A program made the position numbers and the translations under genes. This document shows, piece by piece, positions 1 through 14,299 of a stretch of DNA of 14,942 bases (the first letter of the stretch is position 1; every line of letters starts with the position of its first letter). This DNA is from Gemmatimonadota bacterium. GTDB lineage: Bacteria; Gemmatimonadota; Gemmatimonadetes; Gemmatimonadales; Gemmatimonadaceae. The stretch covers positions 1 to 14,942 of the forward strand of contig JANMLN010000031.1 of assembly GCA_031372565.1 (NCBI GenBank), read 5' to 3'. The notes under the pieces are model-generated. The model searched no databases. It had not been told where the DNA came from and worked only from the letters and a program-made list of their open reading frames with translations.

Positions 1-979
1 CCCCCCCCCCCGACTCCGCGAGCCCCGGAATCCCGTCGCGCCCCTTCGCGCTCCGCACTGCCCGCTCGATCGCCACCGACAACGCACGCGCTGCCAGCGC
101 TTCGACCCCGAGCGGGGTCCCGGTCGGTCCCGTCAACGGGCACAGCGCGAAAATCACGTCGCCGTCGAACGCCGTGCCCACCGGCGTGATGCGCTGGTAG
201 TACGCCGCGCTCGCCGCACGCGCCACCTGCGTCAGCGCCACCTTGTCCATCGCCACGTTGACCATCACCACCGAGATGGTGGTGTTGCGCCCCTGCGCAT
301 CGCTGAAGCGGCGCGGACCGCCCGGCAGCGTGAGCCACCGGATCGTGTCGGCAAAGCCACCTTCCGATCGTGCCCCGGCGATGATCTGCCCGGCGGCGTC
401 GCGCACATCGCCGAACGCGTTCACCACCGAGATGGCACCCGCCACCAGCGCACCCGCGCGCTCCACCGCGCACCCGACGCCGCCCTTCATCGCGCGCTCG
501 ATGCCGCCCCCTTTCCCGACCGTCGCGCCGGTGCCTGCGCCCACGCTCCCCTCGGCGATCCCCGTCACGACCGCATCGCGACACGCCGCATACGCCATCG
601 CCGGCGTCGGGCGCGCGTCGAACCGTCCGCACGGCGTCAGATCGTAGATGACGGCAGCCGGCACGATCGGCACCACCCCCGGCCCCGCCGGAAAGCCGCG
701 CCCGTCCTCTTCCATCCACTGCATCACGCCGGCCGCCGCATCAAGGCCGTAGGCCGAGCCGCCGGTGAGCAGGATCGCATCGACCCGATCGACCAGGTGC
801 TCGGGATCGAGCACGTGCAGCTCGCGCGTGCCGCTCGCCCGGCCGATCACGTGCGCCGCGCCGCGCCGCGGACCGTCGAGCCCGCGCACCACCGTGAGCC
901 CCGTGCCCCCCGCTTCGTCGGTCGCATGCCCCACGGCGACGCCGAGTCCACCGAAGTCCAGCATCGTCGAATCGGTCAC
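1..979 (-). CDS. P1/S58 (DmpA/NylC-like) self-cleaving Ntn hydrolase; 3' end runs off the window
   Basis: Translated by hand from GTG at 979-977 (alternative ATG at 964): MTDSTMLDFGGLGVAVGHATDEAGGTGLTVV...GTRELHVLDPEHLVDRVDAILLTGGSAYGLDAAAGVMQW...VPIVPAAVIYDL...EGSVGAGTGATVGK...KGGVG...VVNAFGDV...GRNTTISVV...TAFDGDVIFAL...AIERAVRSAKGRDGIPGLAE. These are family motifs. There is no stop before base 1 (about 326 codons), which explains its absence from the ORF track. The start overlaps the upstream stop (GTGA). Confidence 0.93.
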   Translation of the reverse strand, partial: MTDSTMLDFGGLGVAVGHATDEAGGTGLTVVRGLDGPRRGAAHVIGRASGTRELHVLDPEHLVDRVDAILLTGGSAYGLDAAAGVMQWMEEDGRGFPAGPGVVPIVPAAVIYDLTPCGRFDARPTPAMAYAACRDAVVTGIAEGSVGAGTGATVGKGGGIERAMKGGVGCAVERAGALVAGAISVVNAFGDVRDAAGQIIAGARSEGGFADTIRWLTLPGGPRRFSDAQGRNTTISVVMVNVAMDKVALTQVARAASAAYYQRITPVGTAFDGDVIFALCPLTGPTGTPLGVEALAARALSVAIERAVRSAKGRDGIPGLAESGGG

Positions 980-1152
980 GCCGGCGCTCCCCCGGTCTTC
1001 GCCTCGCAGGCACGGCACTGCTCCACGCCACGCAACGCGCAGCGGACGCAGATGAAGGTGCCGCACGTGATGCACATGCGCCCTTCGGATGCGCGATCGT
1101 CGCGCCCGCAGGCGCGGCAGGTCATGGTGTCGCCGTCAGCGTAGTGCGTCAT
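976..1152 (-). CDS. 58-aa cysteine-rich protein with four CxxC motifs (putative two-zinc finger)
   Basis: Translated by hand: MTHYADGDTMTCRACGRDDRASEGRMCITCGTFICVRCALRGVEQCRACEAKTGGAPA*. Strong SD (GGAGGAG) 8 nt before the ATG. It fills the gap between the regulator and peptidase genes, its TGA overlaps the next GTG, and all 8 Cys codons are TGC. Confidence 0.88.
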   Translation of the reverse strand: MTHYADGDTMTCRACGRDDRASEGRMCITCGTFICVRCALRGVEQCRACEAKTGGAPA

Positions 1153-1160
1153 GGTCAGCT

Positions 1161-1167
1161 CTCCTCC
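1161..1167 (-). promoter_or_regulatory. Shine-Dalgarno site of the small Cys-rich gene
   Basis: GGAGGAG on the minus strand in the 19-nt gap after the regulator stop codon, 8 nt upstream of ATG 1152. Confidence 0.8.
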
Positions 1168-1171
1168 AGCG

Positions 1172-2524
1172 TCATCGGACGCGTGCCGTCAGCCCGTAGG
1201 CCTTGATCTTCTTGATGAGCGTGGCGCGCGAGATGTCGAGCTCGCGTGCAGCGTGCGTCCGATTGCCGTCGTGCGCAGCCAGCGTCCGTTCGATGTGCGC
1301 ACGCTCGACGTCGGCGAGGCTGCGTGCCACGTGATGCTCCACGCCGCGCCCGCTCGCGTCCCGCACTTCGGGCGGCAGCAACGGCACGTCGATCGCGGGG
1401 CGTCCACGCCCCATGATCATCGCCCGTTCCAGCACATTGCGCAATTCGCGGATGTTGCCCGGCCACGCATAGCGGAGCACCCGCTCGAGCGCATCGTCGG
1501 TGAGCGCGCGCGGCGCGTCAGTCATCGGCGCCGCGAGTTGGTCGATCAGGTGACCGATGAGCTCGACCAGGTCCTCGCGTGCGCGTGCGCGGAGCGGCGG
1601 CAGATGCACCGGCATCACGCTCAACCGGTAGTAGAGGTCTTCACGGAAGCGCCCGGCGGTCACTTCGTGCACGAGGTCCTTGCTCGTGGCCGCGATCAGC
1701 CGCACGTCGGCGACGATCTCCTGCGTCCCCCCGAGCCGGCGGAACCCCTTCCCCTCGAGCACGCGCAACAGCTTGGGTTGCAGGTGCGCATCGAGATCGC
1801 CGATGCCATCGAGGAAGAGCGTTCCGCCGCTCGCGACCTCGAGCAGCCCCGCCTTGGCCTCGCGTGCATCGCCACTCGCTCCGCGCTCGTGTCCGAACAG
1901 CTCCGAATCGAGCGAGGTCGCCGTCAGCGCCGCACAGTTCACTTCGATGAATGGCCCGGCCGCGCGCGGACTCTGTCGGTGGACCTGCTCCGCGACCGTG
2001 CCCTTGCCCGTGCCGCTCTCGCCAATGAGGAGCACTGTCGTCTTCGCACTCGCGGCGAGCAGCGTGATCTGATCCGACAGTTCCCGCATGGCCGGCGACG
2101 CGCCGAGTGTCCCCTGCGTGTCACCCGACAGCCGCTCCGACATCACCGCGTTCAACTGGCGGAGCCGCACCTTCTCCACCGCGCGTTCCACCACGACGGC
2201 GAGATGCTGGAGGTCCACCGGCTTGGTGAGGAAGTTCTCCGCGCCATTCTGCATGGCCTGCACCGCGAGCGGCACGTCGCCGTAGGCCGTGATCATGATG
2301 ACGACGGCCCCGAGCTCTCGAATGCGCGCCAGCACGTCGAACCCCGTCATGTCCGGCAGACGCAGGTCGAGCAGCACGATATCCGGCCGGAGCCGCCGCG
2401 CCATGTCGATCCCTTCCTGCCCCGAGTGCGCGCGGGCCACGGTGTGCTGCCCCGTCCGCTCGAAGAAGGTGCCGAAGGCCGAGGTGATCGCGACCTCGTC
2501 GTCGATGATGAGCAGATTCGCCAT
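1172..2524 (-). CDS. NtrC/AtoC-family response regulator (REC - AAA+ sigma54-interaction domain - Fis HTH) with atypical motifs
   Basis: Intact receiver (IIDDE, VLLDLRLPD, MITAYG, LTKP). Walker A GESGTGK, VNCAAL, SELFGHE, RFREDLYYRL and WPGNIREL are present, followed by the HTH GNRTHAARELDISRATLIKKI. GAFTGA reads GASGDA and Walker B reads LFLDGI. Confidence 0.95.
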   Translation of the reverse strand: MANLLIIDDEVAITSAFGTFFERTGQHTVARAHSGQEGIDMARRLRPDIVLLDLRLPDMTGFDVLARIRELGAVVIMITAYGDVPLAVQAMQNGAENFLTKPVDLQHLAVVVERAVEKVRLRQLNAVMSERLSGDTQGTLGASPAMRELSDQITLLAASAKTTVLLIGESGTGKGTVAEQVHRQSPRAAGPFIEVNCAALTATSLDSELFGHERGASGDAREAKAGLLEVASGGTLFLDGIGDLDAHLQPKLLRVLEGKGFRRLGGTQEIVADVRLIAATSKDLVHEVTAGRFREDLYYRLSVMPVHLPPLRARAREDLVELIGHLIDQLAAPMTDAPRALTDDALERVLRYAWPGNIRELRNVLERAMIMGRGRPAIDVPLLPPEVRDASGRGVEHHVARSLADVERAHIERTLAAHDGNRTHAARELDISRATLIKKIKAYGLTARVR

Positions 2525-5500
2525 TTAGTGACCGGCCCCCGACCGGAGCGCCGCCAGCAGCGCATCGTGTGTGAGCGGACGCGGCAGACTCGCGCGCCCC
2601 GTCCCCCGGACCCAGTCGGCGTCGCCACCCGGGGCGGCGTCCGACACGAAGATGACGCGCTCGGCCACGCGCGGCGCCTGCGCGACCAACCGCGCGTAGA
2701 AGCGCGACGGCGACATGTCGGGCACGTGCATGTCGAGCAGTACCATGTCCCAGCGACGCTCGCCGGCACGGCGCAAGCCGAGCTCACCCGACGGCGCCAC
2801 GGCCACGTCGTGTCCGTCGTCCTCCAGATGACGCACCCGGTCGGCGAGCGCCGTGTCGGCGCTCACCACGAGCACCGTCCGTCGCAGGCTCGGCACGTCG
2901 GTCACCGCGGCGACCGCCTCGAGGTGCGGTCCGACCAACGGCAGCTCCACGATGAAGGTGGCCCCGGCGCCCACCGCCGACTCGACGCGAATCCTGCCCC
3001 CGTGCTCGCGCACGATGCCATCGGTCAGCGAGAGCCCGAGCCCGGTCCCCTGCCCGACGGGTTTGGTGGTGAAGAACGGATTGAAGATCCGGTCGCGCAT
3101 GTCGTCCGGCACGCCGGGACCATTGTCGCCGATCGAGACGAGGAGCATGGCACCGGCGCGCGCGGTGCGCACCTGCATCCGCTTCGCCCCGCTGTTCTGC
3201 GCCATGGCCTGCTCGGCGTTGGTCAGCAGGTTCAGGAAGACCTGCTGCAGCTGCGTCGGATCGGCCCAGGTCGGCGGGAGTCCGTCGTCGAGCTGCACGT
3301 CCACCTGCACCTGCGCCGATTGCAGCGCATAGCGGCGCAGCGCCAGGGTGTCGCGCACGACCTGATTGATGTTCGCCGGCGAACGCTCGGGCGGATGCTG
3401 GCGCGCGAAGGTGAGCAGGTTGTTGACGATCTTCGCGGCGCGGCGCCCCTCGTTCTGGATCGTGTCGGCCGCCTGATGCTGCTCCTCGGTGAGCTCCATG
3501 GCCAGCAAGAGCTGCGAGAACGCCATGACGCCCGCCAACGGGTTGTTCAGCTCGTGTGCCACGCCACTCACCAGCTGCCCGATGGCCGCGAGCTTCTCCT
3601 GCTGCAGCACCTGGTGCAGCAGCACCTTCTCGTCCGAGACGTCGCGCACCACGGCCAGTGCGCCGGTGATCTGCTCGCCTTCCGCAATCGGGGCGGAGTT
3701 GATCGACCCCGTGCGCATCTCGCCCGTGGTGCTCACGAACCGGAACTCGGCGCGGGAGCGGTGCCCGCGCAGCGTCTCCGCGAACACCACCCACAACTTG
3801 TCGCGATCCGGCGAGCCTTCGAGGATCGTCGTGAAGTGGCGGCCGACCAGGTCGGCGCGTCCGCGACCGGTGGCGTGCTCGAGCGCCGCGTTCACCGACG
3901 TGAAGGTGCCCTCTTCGTCGAGCGTGAAGATGGCGTCGCTCGCCGACTCGACGAGACGCGTGTAGCGATCCTCCGAGCGGGCGAGCGCGATGGCCCGCGC
4001 GCGTTCCTCGGTCACGTCGCGGGCGATGGCGAGAATGCCGATGACGTCGCGCCCCTGCCGGATCGGCGAATTGGTGACCGACAGGAGGCGCTCCTCTCCC
4101 GTGGGCCGCTGCAGCCGGCAGTCGTACCGGCGCGCCTCGCCCTGGAGTGCGGCAGCGAGCTGGGCGCGCACCGCGTCGCGATCGTCCGGCACGATGAACT
4201 GCGTGATGTTGTGCCCGAGCACGTCCGGAGCGTCGAGCCCCACGGCGCGGCACGAGGCGTCGTTGGCCGACGTGATCCCGCCCTTCGGGTCCAGCGTATA
4301 GATGAGGTCGGTGGCCGTCTCGAACAGGTTCCGGTAGCGCGCCTCGGAGAGCAGCACCGCATCACGCGCACGTCGCTCGTCCGTCACGTCGCGCATCGAT
4401 GCCACGATACCGGTCACCCGGTCGACGTCGCGCAGCGGCGCCGTCGACACGCTGACCAGCCGCTGCTCGCCGTCGGGCCGCTGGATCAGCGCCTCGTATC
4501 GTTGCGGCCGTCCGGCGAAGGCCATCTGTTCGTGGTCACGTACGCGTTCCGCCTGTCCCGGCGCGAGGAGGTCGTCCACGGCCGTGCCAAGGAGCGCGCC
4601 CTGCCGCGCGAACAGGTCGCTGGCGGATGGATTCGCGAAGGCGATCCGCCGCGACAAGTCGGTGATCACGATCGCGTCGCCGGAGGTCTCGACGACCAAC
4701 CGGTGGCGCTCCGCCAACCCGTGCAACTCGGTCACGTCGTCGAAGGTCACGACCGCGCCGCCGTTCGGGTGCGGCGAGGCTTCCACCTCGTACACGCGGC
4801 CGCGCACGGACGAGCGCACCGTCGCGCGCGCCGTGGTGCGATCGCGCAACGCGCGCATCTCGGGGCTGTCATCGCCGAGCCCCGGTTCCCGCAGCACCGC
4901 CTCGGCGAATCGCTGCCCGTCGAGCGATCGGCCCTGCGCCACTCCGGCGAGCACCAGCGCGCGCGCGTTGAACCTGGTGATGCGGCCATCCTCGTCGAGC
5001 ACGAGCAAGCCGCCCGGGATCGCATCGAAGGCCACGCGCCATTGTTGCGTGGCCGTGGCCAGCTCCTCGAACAACCGCGCGTTGACGATCGCCACCGCGA
5101 CCTGATCGGCCAACCGCTGGAGCACGCGGGCATCGGCGTCGGAGAAATCCTCGTCGCGATTGCTCACCGAGAGGGTGCCGAGCGTCGCGGCCCCCGTGAT
5201 GAGCGGCACGTTGATGACCTTGCGCACGTTGCCGACCCGCTGCGTTGCGCGGTGCGAGCGCGGCTCGGTGAGCACGTCATTGGAGATGTTGTACATCTTC
5301 GACGCGAGCACCGCACCCGTGAGCGATCCTTCGAGCGGGATGTTCATCCCCACCGTCAGGCTGGCGCTGCCCACCGCGGCCACCACGCGCGCGTACTTCT
5401 CCTCGCGCAACGCGATGGCCGCGCCGTCGGCGTGCAGCAACGCCACCGCGTGGCGCAGGATCAGGCGCAGCACCTCGCCCGGGCGCAGCGACTCGCTCAC

Positions 5501-6496
5501 GGCACGCGCCACCTCCGAGAGCGCCTCGGTCTGGCGACGCTCGCGCTCCGACTCCGCGTACAGCCTCGCGTTGAGCAGCGCCCACGCCGCCTGCGCGCCC
5601 AGGTTGGCCAGCACCTCCTCGTCGTCGCTGCTGTAGCGCCCCGCCTCCGGCGACCACGCGACCAGCACCCCCACGAGCCGAGTGCCGCTGCGCATCGGGA
5701 CCGCCAACAGCGAGCCGCCGCGCTCGCGGTCCTGCACCCCCTCATCGGGGATCACCAGCGGATTGTCGGCAAAGGTGCCGACCGCCGCGCGCGCGGGCCG
5801 ACCCGACCGCGCCACGTCGAGCACGATGCCCGGGTGCATCGGTGCCGCATCGCGCGGGGCTTCGCGCCCGCGCACCAGCCGGAACAGGGTACGAAGCTCG
5901 CCGTGCTCCAGATCGGGCTCGGCGATCAGCACGCCGTCGGCACCGACCAGGCGGATCACCTGCCGCGCGATCTCGCGTACCAGCTCCGCCTCGTCCAGCG
6001 TGCGGCCCAGCAGCTGAGCCGCGTCCTGCAGCCGCTGCAGGCGACTCGCGCGCTGCGTCGTCGACTCGGCCAGTCGCGCGCGGACGAGCAACGCCGACAG
6101 CTGACGGACCGCCAGCCGGAGTCTCGCATCGTCAGCTGCACCGGCGGGCAGCGTCCAGATGACGCCGAGGCTCTCGCCGTCAGTCGCCGTCAGTTCGTGC
6201 GACGCCATGCCGTCGATCGGCGGGTCGCCGCGCAGCACCGCGTTGCGAGCTGCCGTTTCCGCATCGGGTGCGACCCCGCTCAGCGCGACCGTGGAGCCGC
6301 TGCTCGGGTTGTACGCGACGGCCACCGCCTCGAACCCGGCGCGCCGAACCGCCGCCGCGCTCTCGGCCAGCCGACCCTCGAGGCCCGTCGCGCCCTCAGC
6401 CGCAAGCAGGTCGGCATGCAGCGACACGAGCTGCGCCGGAGTGGCCGCGCCGTCAGCTGCGATTGCAGGGGTTGCGCGGGACTTTCGAGGCGCCAT
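2525..6496 (-). CDS. Cytoplasmic hybrid sensor histidine kinase: (degenerate GAF)-GAF-GAF-PAS x4-HisKA-HATPase-receiver-like
   Basis: H-box GVAHELNNPL (His codon 3556-3554), N-box QVFLNLLTNA, G1 DNGPG, F-box FNPFFTTK and G2 GTGLGL. Four PAS starts (AFDAIPGGLLVLD, VVETSGDAIVITD, LFETATDLIYTLD, LVESASDAIFTLD). GAF ends such as LLAVPM..LVGVL..AAWALLNARLY. No evident transmembrane segment. Confidence 0.95.
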   Translation of the reverse strand: MAPRKSRATPAIAADGAATPAQLVSLHADLLAAEGATGLEGRLAESAAAVRRAGFEAVAVAYNPSSGSTVALSGVAPDAETAARNAVLRGDPPIDGMASHELTATDGESLGVIWTLPAGAADDARLRLAVRQLSALLVRARLAESTTQRASRLQRLQDAAQLLGRTLDEAELVREIARQVIRLVGADGVLIAEPDLEHGELRTLFRLVRGREAPRDAAPMHPGIVLDVARSGRPARAAVGTFADNPLVIPDEGVQDRERGGSLLAVPMRSGTRLVGVLVAWSPEAGRYSSDDEEVLANLGAQAAWALLNARLYAESERERRQTEALSEVARAVSESLRPGEVLRLILRHAVALLHADGAAIALREEKYARVVAAVGSASLTVGMNIPLEGSLTGAVLASKMYNISNDVLTEPRSHRATQRVGNVRKVINVPLITGAATLGTLSVSNRDEDFSDADARVLQRLADQVAVAIVNARLFEELATATQQWRVAFDAIPGGLLVLDEDGRITRFNARALVLAGVAQGRSLDGQRFAEAVLREPGLGDDSPEMRALRDRTTARATVRSSVRGRVYEVEASPHPNGGAVVTFDDVTELHGLAERHRLVVETSGDAIVITDLSRRIAFANPSASDLFARQGALLGTAVDDLLAPGQAERVRDHEQMAFAGRPQRYEALIQRPDGEQRLVSVSTAPLRDVDRVTGIVASMRDVTDERRARDAVLLSEARYRNLFETATDLIYTLDPKGGITSANDASCRAVGLDAPDVLGHNITQFIVPDDRDAVRAQLAAALQGEARRYDCRLQRPTGEERLLSVTNSPIRQGRDVIGILAIARDVTEERARAIALARSEDRYTRLVESASDAIFTLDEEGTFTSVNAALEHATGRGRADLVGRHFTTILEGSPDRDKLWVVFAETLRGHRSRAEFRFVSTTGEMRTGSINSAPIAEGEQITGALAVVRDVSDEKVLLHQVLQQEKLAAIGQLVSGVAHELNNPLAGVMAFSQLLLAMELTEEQHQAADTIQNEGRRAAKIVNNLLTFARQHPPERSPANINQVVRDTLALRRYALQSAQVQVDVQLDDGLPPTWADPTQLQQVFLNLLTNAEQAMAQNSGAKRMQVRTARAGAMLLVSIGDNGPGVPDDMRDRIFNPFFTTKPVGQGTGLGLSLTDGIVREHGGRIRVESAVGAGATFIVELPLVGPHLEAVAAVTDVPSLRRTVLVVSADTALADRVRHLEDDGHDVAVAPSGELGLRRAGERRWDMVLLDMHVPDMSPSRFYARLVAQAPRVAERVIFVSDAAPGGDADWVRGTGRASLPRPLTHDALLAALRSGAGH

Positions 6497-6503
6497 GGAT
6501 CAG

Positions 6504-6509
6504 AATGTA
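6504..6509 (-). promoter_or_regulatory. Candidate -10 element (TACATT) for a leaderless kinase transcript
   Basis: TAnnnT hexamer in an AT-enriched 57-nt intergenic gap, 7 nt before ATG 6496, with no SD in between. The -35 match is poor. Confidence 0.4.
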
Positions 6510-6553
6510 CAATTTCGCGACACCGTATGCTATCACGCCGCTGGTGCCAACAA

Positions 6554-7441
6554 TCACGTCATTGGCGCAAGAAGATACGCCCCACCTGGATCCACTCGGA
6601 CCTTCATCGGCTCGCGGCGCAGCAGCTCGCCGTCCGCCTGCGCGGGCTGGGGCGGAAAGGTCGCGACCTCGAACTCGTGCCCCCGAAGAAAGAAGAACCC
6701 GGGGTCGGGCCGGAAGTCGCCCCGATGCAGCCGCCACATGATGCGCGCAGCATCGACCGGGCTCCTCGGTGTGTACACGCAGAGGTCCAACTGCCCATCG
6801 TCGTTCCGGATCCCGGGGCCGAAGGTGAACTGTGCACCCAGCACGTTCGGTTGGTTGGCGACGTACACCGCCGACGCTTGGCGCTCGATCACGGTGCCAT
6901 CCACGACGGCGCGCAGGTCGAAGAGCCGCGCCCGCAGCACCGCGCGCGTCGCGGCCGGCGCGTACCCCGGCATGCCGAACAGTCGCTTGAGCACCTTGGG
7001 AGTATCGGCCACCATTGCCGCATCCACCCCCATGCCGGCGGAGTACGCGTACGCGCGCCCGTTGGCGAGACGGCCGAGATCCATGCGCAGCGTGCGCCCG
7101 TGGAGCAACGCGCGCACCGCGTGGTCGAGGTTGAGCGGAATGCCGATGTAGCGCGCGAGCAGATTCCCCGTGCCACCCGGCAGGATGCCGACCGGTATGT
7201 CGCGGCCCGTCAGCGCACCGATCACTTCCGTGGCCGTTCCATCACCGCCCAGCGCAAACACGGCCTGGTACGACGACGCGAGTCGCGACGCGATCTCGCC
7301 GCCGTGGCCCGGCGCCTCGGTCAACACGGCATCGCACGCGGCACCCGCCTCGCGAAATGCGGCGATCGCGCGCGCGTGCCAGCGGGCGCCACGCCGCGAC
7401 GCCGGATTCGAGATGAGCAGGACGTTGGTCAGAAGCGCCAT
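6554..7441 (-). CDS. YegS/DgkB/BmrU-family soluble diacylglycerol/lipid kinase
   Basis: Motifs ISNPAS, LGGDGTATEV, LPGGTGN, GMGVDAAMV and QADGE. Start moved from 7639 to ATG 7441 (MALLTNVLLISNPAS, 295 aa) because the upstream extension lies inside tamB. It overlaps the tamB end by 13 nt. Confidence 0.92.
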   Translation of the reverse strand: MALLTNVLLISNPASRRGARWHARAIAAFREAGAACDAVLTEAPGHGGEIASRLASSYQAVFALGGDGTATEVIGALTGRDIPVGILPGGTGNLLARYIGIPLNLDHAVRALLHGRTLRMDLGRLANGRAYAYSAGMGVDAAMVADTPKVLKRLFGMPGYAPAATRAVLRARLFDLRAVVDGTVIERQASAVYVANQPNVLGAQFTFGPGIRNDDGQLDLCVYTPRSPVDAARIMWRLHRGDFRPDPGFFFLRGHEFEVATFPPQPAQADGELLRREPMKVRVDPGGAYLLAPMT

Positions 7442-10400
7442 ACGCCCGTGAAGTCGAAGCCGAGCTGCGGCGGGGTGGCCGCGAAGCCGCGTCCGTTGGT
7501 CTGTCCGCACAGTTGCCCCACCGTGCTCGGCTCGACGCTCGCCGACAGCGCGTACGTGCTGTTCACGCGATACTCGACCTTGAGGCCAAGCAGGTCGGTG
7601 ATCGAGTAGGTCTGGTTCTGCGACGCGGCCAGACCGCACAGCCCGACATTGCCGCTCAGGTAGGTGCGGTCCGTGAGCTGGATGCCGCCGCCCACGCGCG
7701 TGTTCGCGAGCAGCTGCTGCGTGACGTCGCGGTTCGGCCCCTGATTGCCGCGGTCGAGGCCGGCCGTCTGGATCGAGACGACATCGAGCAATCCGAGACC
7801 GGCCAGCTTGTCCGAGAGCGCGCTCCCCACGGTGGTGATCAGCGCGTTCGCGGCGGTGCCGCCCACGCCGGTCTGCTGGGTCGGGTCGCCGACGCCGAGT
7901 GCCGGACCACCGGTCACGAGATAGCTGATCAGGTCCGACTGCGAGAGCTTGGCCTCGTCGGCGCTCTCGAAGTCGAGCGTGGGCGTCTCCAGCCGACCGC
8001 CGATCTTGGCGCGGATTTTCCGGTCCTGCTGCACGAGCGTCGAGTTGAACTTGCGCACCGTGTGCACGGCGGCAATGTCGAGCGCCGGATTGACTTGCGC
8101 ATCTTCGCCGAAGAAGCGGATGCTGCCGCGCTCCACGTCGAAGGTGCGCTGCACGATCTCGCCGACGTTGAGCCGGTACGTCCCGCGTCGCACCAGCAGC
8201 GTGCCGTCGAGCGTGAACTCGCCCTGCGCCGAATCGAACCCGACCAGCGAGCGGCGGCGCGTGACGCGCACGGTGCCGTCGAGGTTGATGTTGGCCTCGC
8301 TCGATCGCAGCCAGACGTCGGAGCCCATCGTCACGCGCACGTCGCGCAGCGTCAGCGCATTGGCGAAGCCGGTCGTGGCCTGCGGCAACGGCCCGCGCCG
8401 CCCCACGGAGAGCGTGCTGTCGGAGGCCCGGTAGAGCGCGGGGTCGTCGAGCGACACGATGCGCTTCTGCGCGAGGTCGCGGATGTAGATCGCGCCGCGA
8501 TCCACCGTCAGCTGTCCATCGAGTACGGATGCGCTGAGCGGGCCGGTGAGCCGCAAGTCACCGGAGACATCCACATCGGCGACGCCGGGTTGGTCGATCA
8601 CGTTGAAGCTGCCCGCGCGCAGCCGCAGTCCGAACACCGGATCGGCCCAGTCTCGATAGCTCACCCCGCCACTCAGCGCGAGCGTGCCAAAGCGGCGCCC
8701 GCTCTTGAGGCGCGTCTGCACGCTGCGCGCGTCCAGCCGCTGCACGGCCAGCGAATCGCCGAAGAAGCGCAGGTCGGCGCCCAGACCGTCGACCGTCACA
8801 CGACCGAGTCCCGCGATGCGCGCTGCGCCATCGGTCACGCGCATGCCGCCACTGATGAGCGGATGCGCCCACGTGCCACCCAGCGCGAGATCCACGTCGA
8901 GTCGCCCGCTCGCATCCGTCACGGCATCCGTGAACGACTCGGCGAGCGACAGGTCGGCGGCCACCGAGCGGAAGCGGCCCCCGAGCGAATCGTCGAGCAG
9001 CCGCTGCGCCCGCGACTCGAGCGCGAGATCGATCGGCAGGTGCACCGTTCCGGAGAGCGCGAGGGCGGTGTCGCGGCGCAGTTGTACGGTCGCATCCAGC
9101 GCGCGGTCGGCATAGCGCCCCGTGAGCGTCAGCGCGCCGAGTGCGCCGGGTCCGAACCGGGCCCCCTCCACGGCCGCGTCGAGCGCCATCGCCGGCGCGG
9201 CACGCGTTCCGGTGATGCGCGCCGAGAACCGCCCGATGCCGCGCGCGCGTCCATCCGCACCCATCAACGCCGCGAGATCGCCCAACGGAAGCGAGTCCGC
9301 ATCGAAGCGCAGGTTGGTCCCCGCCTGGCCGTGCGCGAGCTGTCCCGCGAGGCGCATCCATCCGGTGCGTGTCCCCCGCACCTCCAGGGTGTCGAGCGCG
9401 AGCAGCTCGGCGCCATCGGTGAACGTGGCCGCGCGCGTCAGCCGCCACCGATTGCTCGCCGACCCGACGACCATCGAATCGATGATCCAGCGCGCCGTGT
9501 CCTGCACGGTGGCGAAGCGCCCGTTCAACCGCGCGTCGGTTCCGGGTCGGAAGATGGCGGCCACGGCGACGTCGGCGTGCTCGAGGTCGCGCGCCGTGCC
9601 GTCGATCGTCACCTGTTGCGCCGAGATGGCCCCGTAGCGCACCGTGTCGAGCGCCACGTGGAGTTGCACCCCCGACCGGGCCACCAGATCCTGCGCCTCG
9701 AGCCGCGCACTCACGGTGCGGACCGTGCTCCCCTGCCAGAGCAGCTGCTTGCCCAGCAACGTCGCGCGCATGCCCAGCGAGTCGCGGTTCCCCACGAGTC
9801 GGGCGTCGAGCGAGAGCGAACCACTCAAGGAATCGAGGGCGGCATCGAGTCGCGGCCCATCGGACGGATTCAGATAGCGGCGGAATCCGCCGAGGGAGTC
9901 GGCAAACACCACGATATGCAGCGAGTCCCGCTCTGTCGCCACGAGACCCAGGCCACCGCCGGCTGACAGCGTGAACGCCGAGGCATCGACACGCAACGTG
10001 TCGACGTGCAGCCGTCCGTCGGCGACGTTCAGCACGGCACGCATGCCGTAGAGCTTGGTCTTGTCGACGAGACCGGTGCCGATCTCGACGGTGGCGGCCC
10101 CGGCGAGATTCGCCAGCGAGTCGCCCCGCACGTCCATCACGAACGACCCGAACAGCGACGTGGTGGGCACGGAACGTTCGAGCGTGAGCGCGTTGAGGTC
10201 GAGGGCCTCGAACGTTCCGCGTCCCTCGAAGGCGAAGCCCGGTGGATAGGCGTCCACCGTACCGGCAAACGAGATGGCCCCCGCGGGCCCCTTGAGCCCT
10301 TCGCTCGACGCCATCTCGAGCGCTTCGGCGGTCCCGCGCGTGGTCAACGGCCCGCTCACGTTGCCGCGGAACGGGATCCTGGGGTAACTGCGCGCGAGCG

Positions 10401-12018
10401 TCGTGAATGCCAGCTGTTGAAAGCGCAAGTCGAGCTCGTAGCGATTGTCGCTGTCGTCCGGGAGCGTGATCCGTCCACTGCCGGTGGCCACGGTGGTATC
10501 GCCGTCCCCGTCGGCGTGCACGAGCGTGGCGCGCGAGAAGCGCATGTCGGTCCAGACCGAGTCGAGCACCATCCGCCCGCGGAACAGCCCCCGCAGGGTG
10601 GGGAAATCGGGATTCACGCGCTGCGCCGTGCGCAGGTCGAACTGCCGCACCTCCAGCTCGAAGCCGTGAAACGCCGTGAAGGCGGGATACAGGATGTCCA
10701 GCTCGCCGCGCCCCACGAACCGCGACTCGGCCCCCGGCACGCCGGCATCGCGGAAGGTGAGTCGCGCGTCGTCGACCTTCCAGTGATTGACCGGCCCACC
10801 CGAGGCCTTGAGCGTTCCCGTGATGTTGCCCTGCCAGTCGTACGGAAACGGCCCGCCGTTGAAGCGGCGCATCAAGTCGAAGTTGGCCGGCGCGAGCACG
10901 AGGTTCACGTCGCGCAGGCCGAGCACCGGTTCGCCCGAGGTGAAGGTCATGCCCCCCGTGATGCGCGAGCGGTACGCCCGCGCATCCATGTCGCTGAGCA
11001 CGAAGTCCATCGCGTTCAGGTTGCCGCGATGATTGTGCACGGCCACGCGCACCCGGCCGCCGCCCTGCTCCGGCACGCTCTTGTCGATCCAGGCGAAATC
11101 GGCCATCCCCGCCGAGTCGGACTGGAACACGAGATCCCAGCGCATCGGGATGCCGCCCCCCCACCAGACCTTGCCGCCGCCCCGCGCGACGGTGTGCGGG
11201 AGTTGAAAGCGGTCGAACGTCACCCAGACCGAGTCTCCCAGCAGGCGCACCAGGCCGCGCGCATTGCTGATCGTGAAGGGCGGGTCGTTCTCCACGATGT
11301 CGAGGCGGCGCACGACGAATTGCAGCCCGGCCGAATCTGGTTGCGCGATGCGCAGTCGTCCGGTCCAGAGCTGCGCACCGGTCCACCGGCGCGTCTTCAT
11401 GTAGCCTTCCGAGTCGGCGCGGATCTCCACGTCCTTGCTCGCCAGGGCATGACGGATCGCGCTGTCGCGACGCGCGCCCGAGAGCGAGTCGTCGGGATGC
11501 CATGGCTGCACGAGCCGCACTTCGCCGTCGCGCAGCGTCATCGAGTCGATGACCACCCAGTCGCCGAAGTCGCGCAACTTGGGCGTCAGGCGCGGCCGCC
11601 GCACCGGCGAGGGCGGAAAGATCTTGCGCCAGTTCCAGTCGGCGTCGCCGTGTTCCTTGATGCGGATGAAGGGCCGCGTGAGTTCCACGGTCTTGAACAC
11701 GATCTTGCGATCGATCAGATCGCGGACGTCATACGTCAGGTGGATCGGACCGGTGCGCACGAACGTCGAGTCGAGCCGGTCGCGCAGGTCGAGCGAGTCC
11801 ACGGTCACGTCGCCCAGCAGCGTGCCGCCGATCGAACCGACATACAGCGTGCCCTTGACGGCCCCCTTGAGCTGCGCCACCACGATCTCCCGTACCCAGT
11901 CACGGCCCACCTGCGTGCTGGTGAGCACGTACCCCGCGAGCCCCGCTGCGCCAAAGAGCGTGCCGAAGGCGAAGGTGGCCGACAGCAACACGAGGCGGCG
12001 GAGACGCATCGCGGCCAT
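7429..12018 (-). CDS. tamB: Translocation and assembly module TamB (AsmA-like, DUF490 C-terminus)
   Basis: About 1529 aa with one N-terminal membrane anchor (RLRRLVLLSATFAFGTLFGAAGLAGYVLT) and long beta-rich repeats. The C-terminal region is DUF490-like (NPALDIAA..., IGGRLETPTLDFES, SDLISYLVTG) and ends in WRF. It lies directly downstream of an Omp85 gene. Likely start is ATG 12018 (1 nt after the tamA stop) or 12009, not 12072. Confidence 0.88.
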   Translation of the reverse strand: MAAMRLRRLVLLSATFAFGTLFGAAGLAGYVLTSTQVGRDWVREIVVAQLKGAVKGTLYVGSIGGTLLGDVTVDSLDLRDRLDSTFVRTGPIHLTYDVRDLIDRKIVFKTVELTRPFIRIKEHGDADWNWRKIFPPSPVRRPRLTPKLRDFGDWVVIDSMTLRDGEVRLVQPWHPDDSLSGARRDSAIRHALASKDVEIRADSEGYMKTRRWTGAQLWTGRLRIAQPDSAGLQFVVRRLDIVENDPPFTISNARGLVRLLGDSVWVTFDRFQLPHTVARGGGKVWWGGGIPMRWDLVFQSDSAGMADFAWIDKSVPEQGGGRVRVAVHNHRGNLNAMDFVLSDMDARAYRSRITGGMTFTSGEPVLGLRDVNLVLAPANFDLMRRFNGGPFPYDWQGNITGTLKASGGPVNHWKVDDARLTFRDAGVPGAESRFVGRGELDILYPAFTAFHGFELEVRQFDLRTAQRVNPDFPTLRGLFRGRMVLDSVWTDMRFSRATLVHADGDGDTTVATGSGRITLPDDSDNRYELDLRFQQLAFTTLARSYPRIPFRGNVSGPLTTRGTAEALEMASSEGLKGPAGAISFAGTVDAYPPGFAFEGRGTFEALDLNALTLERSVPTTSLFGSFVMDVRGDSLANLAGAATVEIGTGLVDKTKLYGMRAVLNVADGRLHVDTLRVDASAFTLSAGGGLGLVATERDSLHIVVFADSLGGFRRYLNPSDGPRLDAALDSLSGSLSLDARLVGNRDSLGMRATLLGKQLLWQGSTVRTVSARLEAQDLVARSGVQLHVALDTVRYGAISAQQVTIDGTARDLEHADVAVAAIFRPGTDARLNGRFATVQDTARWIIDSMVVGSASNRWRLTRAATFTDGAELLALDTLEVRGTRTGWMRLAGQLAHGQAGTNLRFDADSLPLGDLAALMGADGRARGIGRFSARITGTRAAPAMALDAAVEGARFGPGALGALTLTGRYADRALDATVQLRRDTALALSGTVHLPIDLALESRAQRLLDDSLGGRFRSVAADLSLAESFTDAVTDASGRLDVDLALGGTWAHPLISGGMRVTDGAARIAGLGRVTVDGLGADLRFFGDSLAVQRLDARSVQTRLKSGRRFGTLALSGGVSYRDWADPVFGLRLRAGSFNVIDQPGVADVDVSGDLRLTGPLSASVLDGQLTVDRGAIYIRDLAQKRIVSLDDPALYRASDSTLSVGRRGPLPQATTGFANALTLRDVRVTMGSDVWLRSSEANINLDGTVRVTRRRSLVGFDSAQGEFTLDGTLLVRRGTYRLNVGEIVQRTFDVERGSIRFFGEDAQVNPALDIAAVHTVRKFNSTLVQQDRKIRAKIGGRLETPTLDFESADEAKLSQSDLISYLVTGGPALGVGDPTQQTGVGGTAANALITTVGSALSDKLAGLGLLDVVSIQTAGLDRGNQGPNRDVTQQLLANTRVGGGIQLTDRTYLSGNVGLCGLAASQNQTYSITDLLGLKVEYRVNSTYALSASVEPSTVGQLCGQTNGRGFAATPPQLGFDFTGVWRF

Positions 12019-12019
12019 G

Positions 12020-14299
12020 CTAGAACGCCTGCCCGATCGAGATCGACGGCACGAGCCGCGACCAGAAGTCACCCGGCGGCAGCGGCCGATAGGTGGACGG
12101 ACACGGGAGCGAACCGGCCGGCGAGCCGCCGGAGATCGTGTTGCCGGGGCTCACGCAGAAGAGCTGCCCGCCCGCGGAGAGCGGCTGGTCGTAGTACGCC
12201 GGACCCGCCTCGCGCTGGTACCAGTTGTACCCCAGGTCGAAGCGGAAGGCGCCGAACGCGGTGAGCACGCGCAGACCGACGCCCGGCGTCCAGCGCAGCG
12301 CCGACGCGTCGAAGCCGAGCGAGTTGCCGACGCGGTTCCACACGTTCCCCACGTCGGTGAACGCGGAGAGCTGCATGAGGCGGCCGAACACGGGACTGCG
12401 CACGCGATACTCGAGATTGGCGACTACCATCGTGTTGCCGCCGACCGGCACGACGATCTCGCGCGTGCTGCCGGGGGTGGCCACGAAGCTCGAGTCGGTG
12501 CCTCTCGGCACCACGGTGTAGCTCAGCGTCCGATAGACCGCAGGCCCCAACTCGTTCGGACGGTATCCGCGCACCGTGGTCGGACCGCCGGCGAACAACC
12601 GCTCCTGAATGGGGGTGAACTGCCCCTCGGCGCCAAGGCTGAAGCCACGCGTATCGAAGATGCCGCCCACGCGCAGCCGCGCCGCCAGCACACCGGTTTC
12701 ACCCACGCGCTGAAAGGCGGAGAAGTCGAGCACCAGCTTGTTGAAGCGGATGTTGGTTTCCGAACCGATCGTTGGCGACGCATGCCGGAAATCGAACCGC
12801 GCCGTGACCCCGCGCGTGGCGGTCACCGGCCGGTTGGTCCATTCCCGCACCGCCGACAGGCTGAGCACGGCCACGCGCTGCTCGCGCTGCGCATTCTCCC
12901 GGTCGGCCGCCTCGCAGAGTTGGTTGACCACGCAGAAGAAGGCCGGTGACGCCACCGTTCGTCCGAACTCGAGCGAGTACCCGAGCGACAGCGGAACCCC
13001 CCACAACTCGAGCGGACTGATCGAGACGTTCAAGCCGATCGGGGTCACGCGCCGATAGGCGTTGTACTCCGAGCGTTGTTCGGAGTAGATCGTGATGACC
13101 GGCACCGTCCGCAGGCCGAAGAGCACCGGCTGCCGGAACGAGATGCCCGCGTAGTAGTTGAGCGTGTCGCCGTACTGGTCCGCGTACGCGTCGGGATGGC
13201 ACAGCGAGTTGGCGCCGCTCCACTTGGCCGGCTCACCCACGCCGATGCGCGAGACGCGCCCCGTGAGCTGCACCCGCCGTGCGCCGCCGAGAAAGTTGTA
13301 GTCGGTGAGCGTGCCCTGCGTCCGGAAGCAGTCGATCGTGCCCCAACCGGCGCCCAGCGAGGCGGCGTACCGCTCGGCCTCGGTCACCTTGAGGACGAGC
13401 CGCGCTGCGGTGTCCGCGCGCGAGTTGCGCGAGGAGTCCAACTCGACGCGCACCTGGCGGAACGCTTCGGTGGCGTACAGTTGCCGCTGGCCCGTGACGA
13501 GATCCTGTTCGACATACAGGTCTCCGGCCGCGACGCCGAAGATGTTGCGCACATCGTCGGCACTCGTGCGCCCGGGTCCTCCCTTGCCGCCCTCGACCTC
13601 GACCGCCACGCTGCTGATGTGCGTGCGCGGCCCCGGCACGACGGCCAGCTCCACCGTCGCCGATCGCGTGCCGCGATTGACCTCGTAGTTGCGGAGCACG
13701 TCGGCGCGCGGATAGCCGAGGTTGCGCATCCGTCGCAACAGGGTGTCGCGGGCCGCGCTGATGGCGGCCTCGTCGAACACGCCACCACGCCTCAGCGGCA
13801 GCGTCTCGGTCAGACGACCGGCACCGGGCACCGCGTCGATGCCACTGATCACCAGCGCGACCACCACGGTGGGCAGCGACTCCTGGATGAGAAAGCGGAT
13901 CGAGACTTCGCGTCCGTCGCGCTGCACCGCCGTGTCCACGGTCGCCTGCGGAAAGCCGTGCGTCCGGTAGTAGAACTGCAGTCGCAGCACGTCGCCGGCG
14001 AACTGGCGCGGATCGAGGCACCGCTCCGTGGCCAGCGCACGCAGCACCGGCACGCGCGCCACCCAGCTCATCGGGGTCGTCACGATGCGACTCGCCAGCT
14101 CTTCGTCCGGGATCGAGTTGTTGCCGGCGAAGCGGACCTGTCGCACGCGCTCGCTCGCCGGTTCGCACGCGGCCGCGTCCTGCGCGCGAGCGGGTGCCGA
14201 GCCCGCCGCAATCAGCAACGTCCCCATCCACAACGGCATCGCCCCGGCCCATGCACGGGCGCCGCGCCACCATCGGCGCACGTCAGGCTTGCTCGGCAT
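12020..14299 (-). CDS. tamA: Omp85-family outer membrane protein, TamA-like (3 POTRA domains plus beta-barrel)
   Basis: Signal peptide ending APARA|Q, three POTRA-like units, the loop-6 motif VRGY (GGPTTVRGY), GVGLRVLTAFGAFRFDLGY, and a C-terminal beta-signal SIGQAF. Adjacent to tamB. Start is 14299 or possibly the internal ATG of MPLWMG. Confidence 0.88.
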   Translation of the reverse strand: MPSKPDVRRWWRGARAWAGAMPLWMGTLLIAAGSAPARAQDAAACEPASERVRQVRFAGNNSIPDEELASRIVTTPMSWVARVPVLRALATERCLDPRQFAGDVLRLQFYYRTHGFPQATVDTAVQRDGREVSIRFLIQESLPTVVVALVISGIDAVPGAGRLTETLPLRRGGVFDEAAISAARDTLLRRMRNLGYPRADVLRNYEVNRGTRSATVELAVVPGPRTHISSVAVEVEGGKGGPGRTSADDVRNIFGVAAGDLYVEQDLVTGQRQLYATEAFRQVRVELDSSRNSRADTAARLVLKVTEAERYAASLGAGWGTIDCFRTQGTLTDYNFLGGARRVQLTGRVSRIGVGEPAKWSGANSLCHPDAYADQYGDTLNYYAGISFRQPVLFGLRTVPVITIYSEQRSEYNAYRRVTPIGLNVSISPLELWGVPLSLGYSLEFGRTVASPAFFCVVNQLCEAADRENAQREQRVAVLSLSAVREWTNRPVTATRGVTARFDFRHASPTIGSETNIRFNKLVLDFSAFQRVGETGVLAARLRVGGIFDTRGFSLGAEGQFTPIQERLFAGGPTTVRGYRPNELGPAVYRTLSYTVVPRGTDSSFVATPGSTREIVVPVGGNTMVVANLEYRVRSPVFGRLMQLSAFTDVGNVWNRVGNSLGFDASALRWTPGVGLRVLTAFGAFRFDLGYNWYQREAGPAYYDQPLSAGGQLFCVSPGNTISGGSPAGSLPCPSTYRPLPPGDFWSRLVPSISIGQAF

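Follow-up and report, generated by a model that had tools for sequence, protein, structure and literature searches.

We describe a small gene on the minus strand of contig JANMLN010000031.1 (GenBank assembly GCA_031372565.1), a stretch of 14,942 nucleotides from a Gemmatimonadota bacterium that was analysed over its whole length and is called the window below. The gene lies between one for an atypical NtrC-type response regulator and one for an S58 (DmpA-type) peptidase, and it codes for a protein with eight cysteines, which we call the finger. Judged by its conservation, it is a genuine gene under purifying selection, and its product is likely to be a cross-braced treble clef that holds two metal ions. 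The combined proposal, that a genuine Gemmatimonadota gene encodes a two-metal cross-braced finger which serves as a protein-interaction module of the signalling pathway encoded upstream, is put forward tentatively, at somewhat less than even confidence; in it we infer the metal, the ligand pairing and the partner. Our confidence in the gene and in the fold class is much higher than in the proposal as a whole, and in the partner much lower. The features of the gene are the following.

976..1152, minus strand: finger gene, 58 amino acids with eight cysteines, TGA stop at 978..976, read from its translation and from orthologues in 46/46 fetched Gemmatimonadota loci
1006..1125, minus strand: conserved predicted metal-binding core, residues 10-49, with four CxxC pairs, the R20-A21-S22-E23-G24 loop, G31/F33 and G42
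1161..1167, minus strand: Shine-Dalgarno-like GGAGGAG, 8 nucleotides before the finger ATG (1152..1150) and 4 nucleotides after the regulator stop (1174..1172)
976..979, minus strand: GTGA stop/start overlap of the finger gene (TGA 978..976) with the S58 peptidase gene (GTG 979..977)

Conservation of the finger gene

A scan of species-representative genomes yielded 46 loci. All of them are on contigs of Gemmatimonadota metagenome-assembled genomes, and together with the window they make up the 47 loci compared here. The finger open reading frame (ORF) is present, with its orientation kept, in all 46 related loci, and a 41-codon core aligns free of gaps in 47/47 with all eight cysteines retained, so that both the frame and the cysteines to which an earlier note on this DNA had drawn attention are kept in relatives. 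Besides the cysteines, M10, R13, R20, A21, S22, E23, G24, G31, F33 and G42 are invariant across the 47 loci. The codons in these invariant columns do vary: every cysteine column holds both TGC and TGT, serine is written with five codons, and alanine and glycine with three to four. The median ratio of nonsynonymous to synonymous divergence (dN/dS) is 0.17 by the Nei-Gojobori method, taken over those pairs (995 of 1081) whose synonymous divergence could be used. When the six-frame translations of the window and the 46 loci (986,410 residues) were searched for four consecutive CxxC pairs, 47 matches were found at the finger and 0 elsewhere. Since the ORF, the gapless core and the eight cysteines are kept in 47/47 loci, with synonymous variation and a dN/dS of 0.17, we conclude from these sequence comparisons that 976..1152 on the minus strand is a genuine gene under purifying selection. 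The GC content at third codon positions (GC3) is nearly equal on both strands, 0.86 in the finger frame and 0.88 in the open antisense ORF, and therefore the coding case rests on conservation and not on composition.

The minus-strand translation of 976..1152 places the cysteines at residues 12, 15, 27, 30, 35, 38, 46 and 49, in precise agreement with the spacing given in the earlier note (C-x2-C-x11-C-x2-C-x4-C-x2-C-x7-C-x2-C). The strong Shine-Dalgarno sequence claimed there is found as GGAGGAG at 1167..1161 with its 8-nucleotide spacer to the ATG, and the claimed GTGA overlap with the peptidase is borne out too, as the GTG at 979..977 opens the S58 frame. The finger ORF is listed when the minimum length is set to 40 amino acids (min_aa 40), and the default cut-off of 60 amino acids in the ORF lister would hide an ORF of 58, which may be why the earlier note found it missing from its ORF track. 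Across the loci the start codon is ATG in 43/47, and 11 codons stand ahead of the first cysteine in 30/47. A Shine-Dalgarno-like word lies within -4..-20 of the finger start in 22/47 loci, and in the remaining ones the stop codon of the upstream gene is found within about 10 nucleotides of the start.

These data also bear on whether the ORF is open by mere chance, the DNA being GC-rich, or codes for the precursor of a ribosomally made peptide natural product. It is short, the antisense frame is open with equal GC3, and the sole NCBIfam match of the window protein is a weak one to a heterocycloanthracin-type bacteriocin model (E 0.29); but a low dN/dS and eight cysteines held invariant over synonymous variation in 47/47 loci speak against such an origin, the whole core is conserved and not hypervariable, and no modification enzyme genes are found in the neighbourhood. 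This explanation is extremely improbable and, as far as sequence data allow, refuted.

Relatives in the databases

A word-indexed protein search gave 7 relatives of 58-66 amino acids, and when 1.84 billion representatives were searched exhaustively with phmmer there were 50 matches at E <= 1e-3, mostly 51-135 amino acids long. Where source names are present they read 'hypothetical protein', the atlas neighbours of the finger are unnamed Gemmatimonadota clusters, and among the papers listed by literature searches there was none on the family. By the relatives retrieved, the finger family is confined to Gemmatimonadota. The family alignment used below (A2) has 61 rows, namely the window protein, 41 of the 44 distinct locus translations (L021, L031 and L034 were omitted) and 19 database proteins; P0007 and artefactual long proteins were left out of it. 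In Pfam no family is above threshold for the window protein, the top matches being C1_2 (E 7e-4), zf-RING_5 (E 0.064) and Prok-RING_2 (E 0.9), and when all 61 members were scanned 53 matched C1_2 at E <= 0.1 and every other family was matched by at most 7 members. The earlier note had left room for a confident match to an already characterised family, and none above threshold was found in Pfam, NCBIfam or the PDB.

Domain fusions were considered as a clue to function and were rejected. Among 13 longer matching proteins, the 7 that were inspected (P0058, P0059, P0060, P0062, P0064, P0065 and P0067) are all out of frame: on one side of the finger or the other they run into Arg/Ala-rich sequence from a wrong frame, and P0052 looks alike. 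In the database these 'fusions' (P0058-P0068 and P0052) join the finger to the regulator, a kinase, TamB or NlpC/P60, and they resemble frameshifted gene calls on error-prone assemblies. The long 'fused' proteins are taken as frameshift or gene-call artefacts, and the finger is taken to stand alone. Two short proteins, P0056 and P0057, have a different N-terminus (...PFWDA... or ...PYWNA... before CxxCG) followed by the C-terminal half of the finger, and they are either real recombinants or assembly chimeras.

Predicted fold and metal sites

AlphaFold2, run with the 61-sequence alignment, modelled the window protein with a mean predicted local distance difference test (pLDDT) score of 83.0 and with 89-92 per 10-residue block in the core. 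The model of L011, an orthologue from the main clade, has a mean pLDDT of 79.7 and the same secondary structure. In both models a hairpin (9-11/18-20) bears C12/C15 and a short bridge (25-26/33-34) bears C27/C30, and two helices, 36-41 and 47-53, begin at C35/C38 and C46/C49. Since a knuckle together with a helix N-terminus makes up a treble-clef unit, and since the two units are interleaved, the pairs would be used in cross-braced fashion, first with third and second with fourth. In these models the most likely ligand sets are C12/C15 with C35/C38 and C27/C30 with C46/C49, holding two metal ions, probably zinc, and the finger is likely to be a cross-braced two-metal treble clef.

When the two models were compared with the PDB by Foldseek nothing significant was found, the best E values being 0.33 and 0.14. 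Both lists are headed mostly by binuclear treble clefs, namely the PHD fingers of SmcY and AIRE, the FYVE domains of EEA1, RUFY1 and Vps27, p44, C1 domains of protein kinase C (PKC), RING and ZZ, and small archaeal ribosomal zinc proteins are interspersed among these non-significant matches. Similarly, a sequence profile search of the PDB gave nothing below E 0.027 (p44), followed by TraR at 0.07-0.22 and the FYVE domain of RUFY1 at 0.23. The claim of the earlier note that the finger is a FYVE/RING-like, cross-braced two-zinc structure can therefore be kept in part: the ligand pattern, the elements predicted by AlphaFold2 and the company in the Foldseek lists all agree with it, whereas a significant match to any such structure did not emerge.

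The cysteines might instead bind iron or serve as a thiol redox or metal-buffering switch, in which case the finger would be a rubredoxin-like or metallothionein-like protein. CxxCG knuckles are common to rubredoxins, and a gene for an FTR1 iron permease/cytochrome c lies a few kilobases downstream in many loci; but several unrelated genes separate FTR1 from the finger, no rubredoxin or metallothionein family was matched at E <= 1 by the window protein or at E <= 0.1 by the 61 members, and the knuckle-plus-helix units predicted are of the zinc treble-clef type. We regard an iron or redox role as quite unlikely.

Comparison with known finger families

The FYVE domain (PF01363; EEA1 and RUFY1) resembles the finger in its eight ligands and in the central CxxCG-x3-CxxC with two flanking CxxC pairs, and the highest TM-scores to the first model were those of EEA1 (0.51) and RUFY1 (0.50), at a Foldseek E of 0.47 that is not significant. 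The motifs by which FYVE domains bind phosphatidylinositol 3-phosphate (PI3P) are WxxD, R(R/K)HHCR and RVC. The finger lacks all three and has no Trp at all; it has SEGRM before C27, where the family consensus is SEGYP, and VEQ/GVTx before C46, and it is shorter and stands alone. The absence of WxxD and R(R/K)HHCR can be read directly from the sequence, and the view of the earlier note that PI3P binding is not predicted stands. Pfam FYVE gave no match for the window protein at E <= 1 and none among the 61 members at E <= 0.1. By this comparison, the finger is not a FYVE member. An indirect link to FYVE-like fingers is provided by P0046 and P0049, two multi-repeat metagenomic proteins that match the finger at E ~1e-5 in phmmer. 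Their repeat unit is C-x2-C-x11-C-x2-C-x4-C-x2-C-x4-H-x-C; they exceed the Pfam FYVE threshold (43-45 vs 27.8 bits), P0049 exceeds that of Prok-RING_2 too, and hhalign of A2 against them gave 80% and 85% probability across the first six cysteines. This sequence link leans heavily on the cysteines.

The C1/DC1 family (PF03107, C1_2) is the commonest Pfam match of the finger family (53/61, best E 4.9e-5), and the C1 domains of PKC are among the Foldseek matches with TMq of 0.42-0.43. The window protein is, however, below the gathering score (20.3 vs 26 bits), its ligands are all Cys with no His, and it has a charged loop in place of the hydrophobic tip that inserts into membranes. Among RING-like fingers of the C4C4 type, the C-terminus of TFIIH p44 (5obz_B, E 0.027) is the top match of the PDB profile search, shares the all-Cys ligands, and was fourth in the second Foldseek search with a TMq of 0.49. 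On the other hand, zf-RING_5 (PF14634; 13.7 vs 27.9 bits) and Prok-RING_2 (PF14445; 10.2 vs 22.4 bits) are below their gathering thresholds, and the finger has no His ligands. Association with genes for ubiquitin-like conjugation is a criterion for prokaryotic RING families, and family scans of the neighbours found no ubiquitin-like, E1 or E2 genes near the finger.

The finger resembles the archaeal micro-protein HVO_2753 of Haloferax (6ydh), which is described as a stand-alone protein of about 60 amino acids with four Cys-pair motifs (PMC11241148), and in Halobacterium the small zinc-finger protein Brz is reported to be encoded beside the target gene that it regulates (PMC2253796). However, 6ydh is only at rank 20 in the Foldseek search (TMq 0.38, E 0.75), no sequence relationship was found, and the archaeal micro-proteins differ from the finger in domain of life and in gene context. 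A likeness to DksA/TraR (PF01258) is seen in the finger-family stretch Y-P-C-x-x-C-G ... R-G-V-T-x-C-x-x-C, which aligns with YLCEACG...PGVTLCVEC of TraR. Three of the 61 members match PF01258, the best at E 0.0052, and neither these matches nor those to TraR in the PDB (E 0.07-0.22) are significant. The finger has an extra CxxC inside the aligned stretch and another before it, and only 11 residues precede its first cysteine, whereas TraR and DksA have a long N-terminal helix.

The finger fails every gathering threshold and lacks the FYVE lipid motifs, the His ligands of C1 and RING, and neighbours from a ubiquitin system, and for these reasons we do not count it as a member of those families. 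On these comparisons it is a new family inside a known fold class and outside the RING, PHD, FYVE and C1 families of Pfam. Pfam already holds Prok-RING families, and RING-like binuclear fingers have been described as one group that predates the eukaryotes (PMC4506424).

Gene neighbourhood

The genes on either side of the finger are the following.

1172..2524, minus strand: NtrC-type response regulator (receiver, AAA+ and Fis-type helix-turn-helix domains, by Pfam), stop 19 nucleotides before the finger ATG
2525..6496, minus strand: PAS/GAF histidine kinase of 1323 amino acids (by Pfam), abutting the regulator gene and present only in some related loci
2..979, minus strand: S58 (DmpA-type) peptidase gene (Pfam PF03576, E 2e-26), running off the window end

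The minus-strand order in the window is TamA, TamB, YegS-type lipid kinase, histidine kinase, NtrC-type regulator, finger and S58. Across the loci the backbone reads TamB, lipid kinase, (histidine kinase), (response regulator), finger, (S58), (NlpC/P60 with SH3), (DUF6941 on the opposite strand, EamA), HAD, (two unnamed genes), FTR1/cytochrome c and RraA, where the genes in parentheses are present in only some loci and were gained or lost between lineages. TamA precedes TamB in this syntenic Gemmatimonadota backbone, and the part of it in the window spans 2..14299 on the minus strand. The 1323-amino-acid sensor of the window is matched twice by GAF and four times by PAS, and at its C-terminus only weakly by the receiver family (24.4 bits vs a threshold of 30.2 in Pfam); in related loci the kinase is a shorter hybrid whose receiver domain is clear, or is missing altogether.

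Directly upstream of the finger is the regulator in 39/47 loci (tblastn), a sensor kinase in 7/47 and TamB in one (L020). The regulator match in L019 is only the receiver (REC) domain of a PAS/GAF-REC protein. Three of the sensor-kinase loci were checked for a C-terminal REC domain, which is present in L008 and L044 and absent from L015. The gaps from the regulator match to the finger are mostly 8-25 nucleotides. Directly downstream of the finger, NlpC/P60 is found in 30 of the 47 loci (L020 among them), S58 in 10, HAD in 4 and DUF6941 in 1, and the contig ends there in 2. Where S58 follows, an in-frame NTGA overlap start is kept in 9/10 loci (8 GTGA and 1 ATGA; L005 does not have it), and the gaps from the finger to the downstream peptidase are often -4 to +13 nucleotides. 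On gene order the S58 gene is a variable neighbour of the finger and not its constant partner, and the suggestion in the earlier note of a link to the self-processing hydrolase does not hold as a feature of the family, S58 standing directly after the finger in only 10/47 loci. In L005 and L015 the S58 and SH3-NlpC/P60 genes stand in series behind the finger, and elsewhere there is one of the two. Going by the family names, S58 and NlpC/P60 could both act on D-amino-acid or cell-wall peptides. The window opens with a run of about ten C (1..11), which may be a contig-end or assembly artefact, and the S58 gene runs off that end.

This arrangement raises the question whether the finger serves as adaptor or regulator for the peptidases downstream, be it S58 of the DmpA type or NlpC/P60 with SH3. 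A peptidase follows directly in 40/45 loci with a visible downstream gene (S58 in 10, NlpC/P60 in 30), nine of the ten S58 loci retain the stop/start overlap, and the spacing to the NlpC/P60 matches is often as tight as given above. Against this, the S58 and NlpC/P60 folds are unrelated, so that one small finger would need two interfaces, and four loci go straight from the finger to HAD and one to DUF6941 on the opposite strand. We consider a peptidase adaptor unlikely.

A scan of 1..7800 for sigma-70 promoters and terminators gave 0 promoters and 2 mutually overlapping terminator-like sites at 6696..6714, against 2.1 expected, and no promoter-like or terminator-like site was found between regulator, finger and peptidase. 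Rfam matched no RNA family anywhere in the window. The lipid kinase gene (DAGK-type, 6554..7429, minus strand) is two genes upstream of the finger, whose commonest sub-threshold match is of the C1 type, and eukaryotic diacylglycerol kinases carry C1 domains. This adjacency is probably a coincidence because L009 and L020 lack the lipid kinase gene.

The NtrC-type regulator

The regulator of the window has the Sigma54_activat domain of Pfam (E 1e-58). It was aligned with 29 of 35 reference sequences, giving 30 in all; L022 (internal stop), L026 (a read-through of 592 amino acids) and the near-duplicates L021, L031, L032 and L034 were left out. The GAFTGA motif is present in 0/30 of the aligned regulators, so that the loop is degenerate in every one of them, and the earlier note was right to call the regulator atypical. 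The window has GASGDA; among the variants, the main clade has GAFTDA and the clade of the window GASGDA, GATNEA or a similar sequence, and in others the loop is deleted or unrecognisable. In Walker B the clade of the window has FLDGIG, a change of Glu to Gly, and another clade has LLREIG. The region of the receiver Asp and the Fis-type helix-turn-helix are highly conserved among the 30 orthologues. An intact GAFTGA is reported to be needed for contact with sigma-54, changes in the loop mostly abolishing activation, and TyrR, DhaR and HupR are given as proteins that became sigma-70 dependent through GAFTGA changes (both in PMC3162934). A preprint on Caulobacter NtrC adds further GAFTGA-less NtrC proteins that act at sigma-70 promoters (10.1101/2023.06.06.543975). 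A search of the window for sigma-54 promoters (TGGCAC-N5-TTGC with up to 2 mismatches) gave 8 matches against 15.6 expected, none of them convincing. The regulator is probably, from its sequence, a sigma-54-independent derivative of enhancer-binding proteins.

A more specific idea is that the finger makes a new contact, with either RNA polymerase or the receiver domain, and so completes a two-part activator together with the loop-less regulator. Such an activator, built on an otherwise defunct enhancer-binding protein, would be independent of sigma-54, would possibly be gated by metal or redox state, and would act on an envelope or peptide-recycling operon. The idea draws on the DksA/TraR-like C-terminal half of the finger and on a regulator that has lost the sigma-54 loop and, in the clade of the window, the Walker B glutamate as well. 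We think it very unlikely.

Proposed role of the finger

In the reading that we tentatively favour, the finger would be transcribed with the preceding signalling gene and would probably be translationally coupled to it, and two metal ions, probably zinc, would stabilise it as a binuclear treble clef. It would then serve as a small protein-interaction module of a two-component pathway, usually one with a GAFTGA-less NtrC-type regulator, and its contact surfaces would be the invariant charged loop (E/D)-R-A-S-E-G and the G-T-F and R-G-V patches. The finger would be neither a lipid binder nor an enzyme. Of the possible partners the two-component pathway is the likeliest, given that the finger has a signalling gene before it in 46/47 loci. 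The earlier note had proposed an adaptor for either the regulator or the hydrolase, and it is the regulator or sensor side of that proposal which gains from the 46/47, whereas the hydrolase side loses, as S58 follows in 10/47.

Several observations weigh against the proposal that the finger is a two-metal module of the signalling pathway. On the side of the fold, no Foldseek or PDB sequence match reaches significance, and two relatives depart from the eight cysteines, P0047 (in the 61-row alignment) with Ser at C27 and P0007 with Gly at C27 and C30. In addition, archaeal HVO_2753 is reported to bind one zinc despite its four Cys-pair motifs (PMC11241148), and given this precedent a cysteine motif alone is no proof of the number of metals. 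On the side of the partner, all loci belong to one phylum with a strongly syntenic backbone, and therefore the adjacency may be inherited gene order and not function. The finger keeps every invariant residue in loci without the regulator, namely the 7 with a sensor kinase only and L020, and in L020, where TamB comes directly before it, the 1.3 kilobases of upstream contig hold no signalling gene. Finally, since a peptidase is next downstream in 40/45 loci and is tightly spaced, the operon argument points equally downstream.

The same observations lend themselves to another explanation, in which the finger acts on its own as a small zinc protein, with nucleic acid, RNA polymerase or the ribosome as its binding target, and stands behind the regulator only through inherited gene order. 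The backbone from TamB to HAD and FTR1/cytochrome c is kept while histidine kinase, response regulator, S58 and NlpC/P60 vary round an unchanged finger, L020 has the finger with no signalling gene at all, and small archaeal ribosomal zinc proteins and TraR are among the non-significant structural and sequence matches. Nevertheless, in 46/47 loci the finger is still directly preceded by a two-component gene, at very tight spacing, and no ribosomal or TraR match is significant. We hold an autonomous binder of this kind to be rather doubtful.

Significance

The finger gene shows that gene calling with a length filter can miss a protein under strong constraint. With its predicted fold it would be a phylum-specific addition to the two-metal treble-clef fingers of prokaryotes, of which few have been listed, the fold having mostly been studied in eukaryotes. 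A small bacterial zinc finger is in itself unsurprising to a specialist, and if the finger is only a syntenic passenger it would join the other small zinc proteins that are uncharacterised. What offers a neat and testable lead, however, is its pairing with a GAFTGA-less regulator: if the link to the regulator is functional, the finger would be a micro-protein partner of an unconventional enhancer-binding protein, and an example of one that is easily tested.

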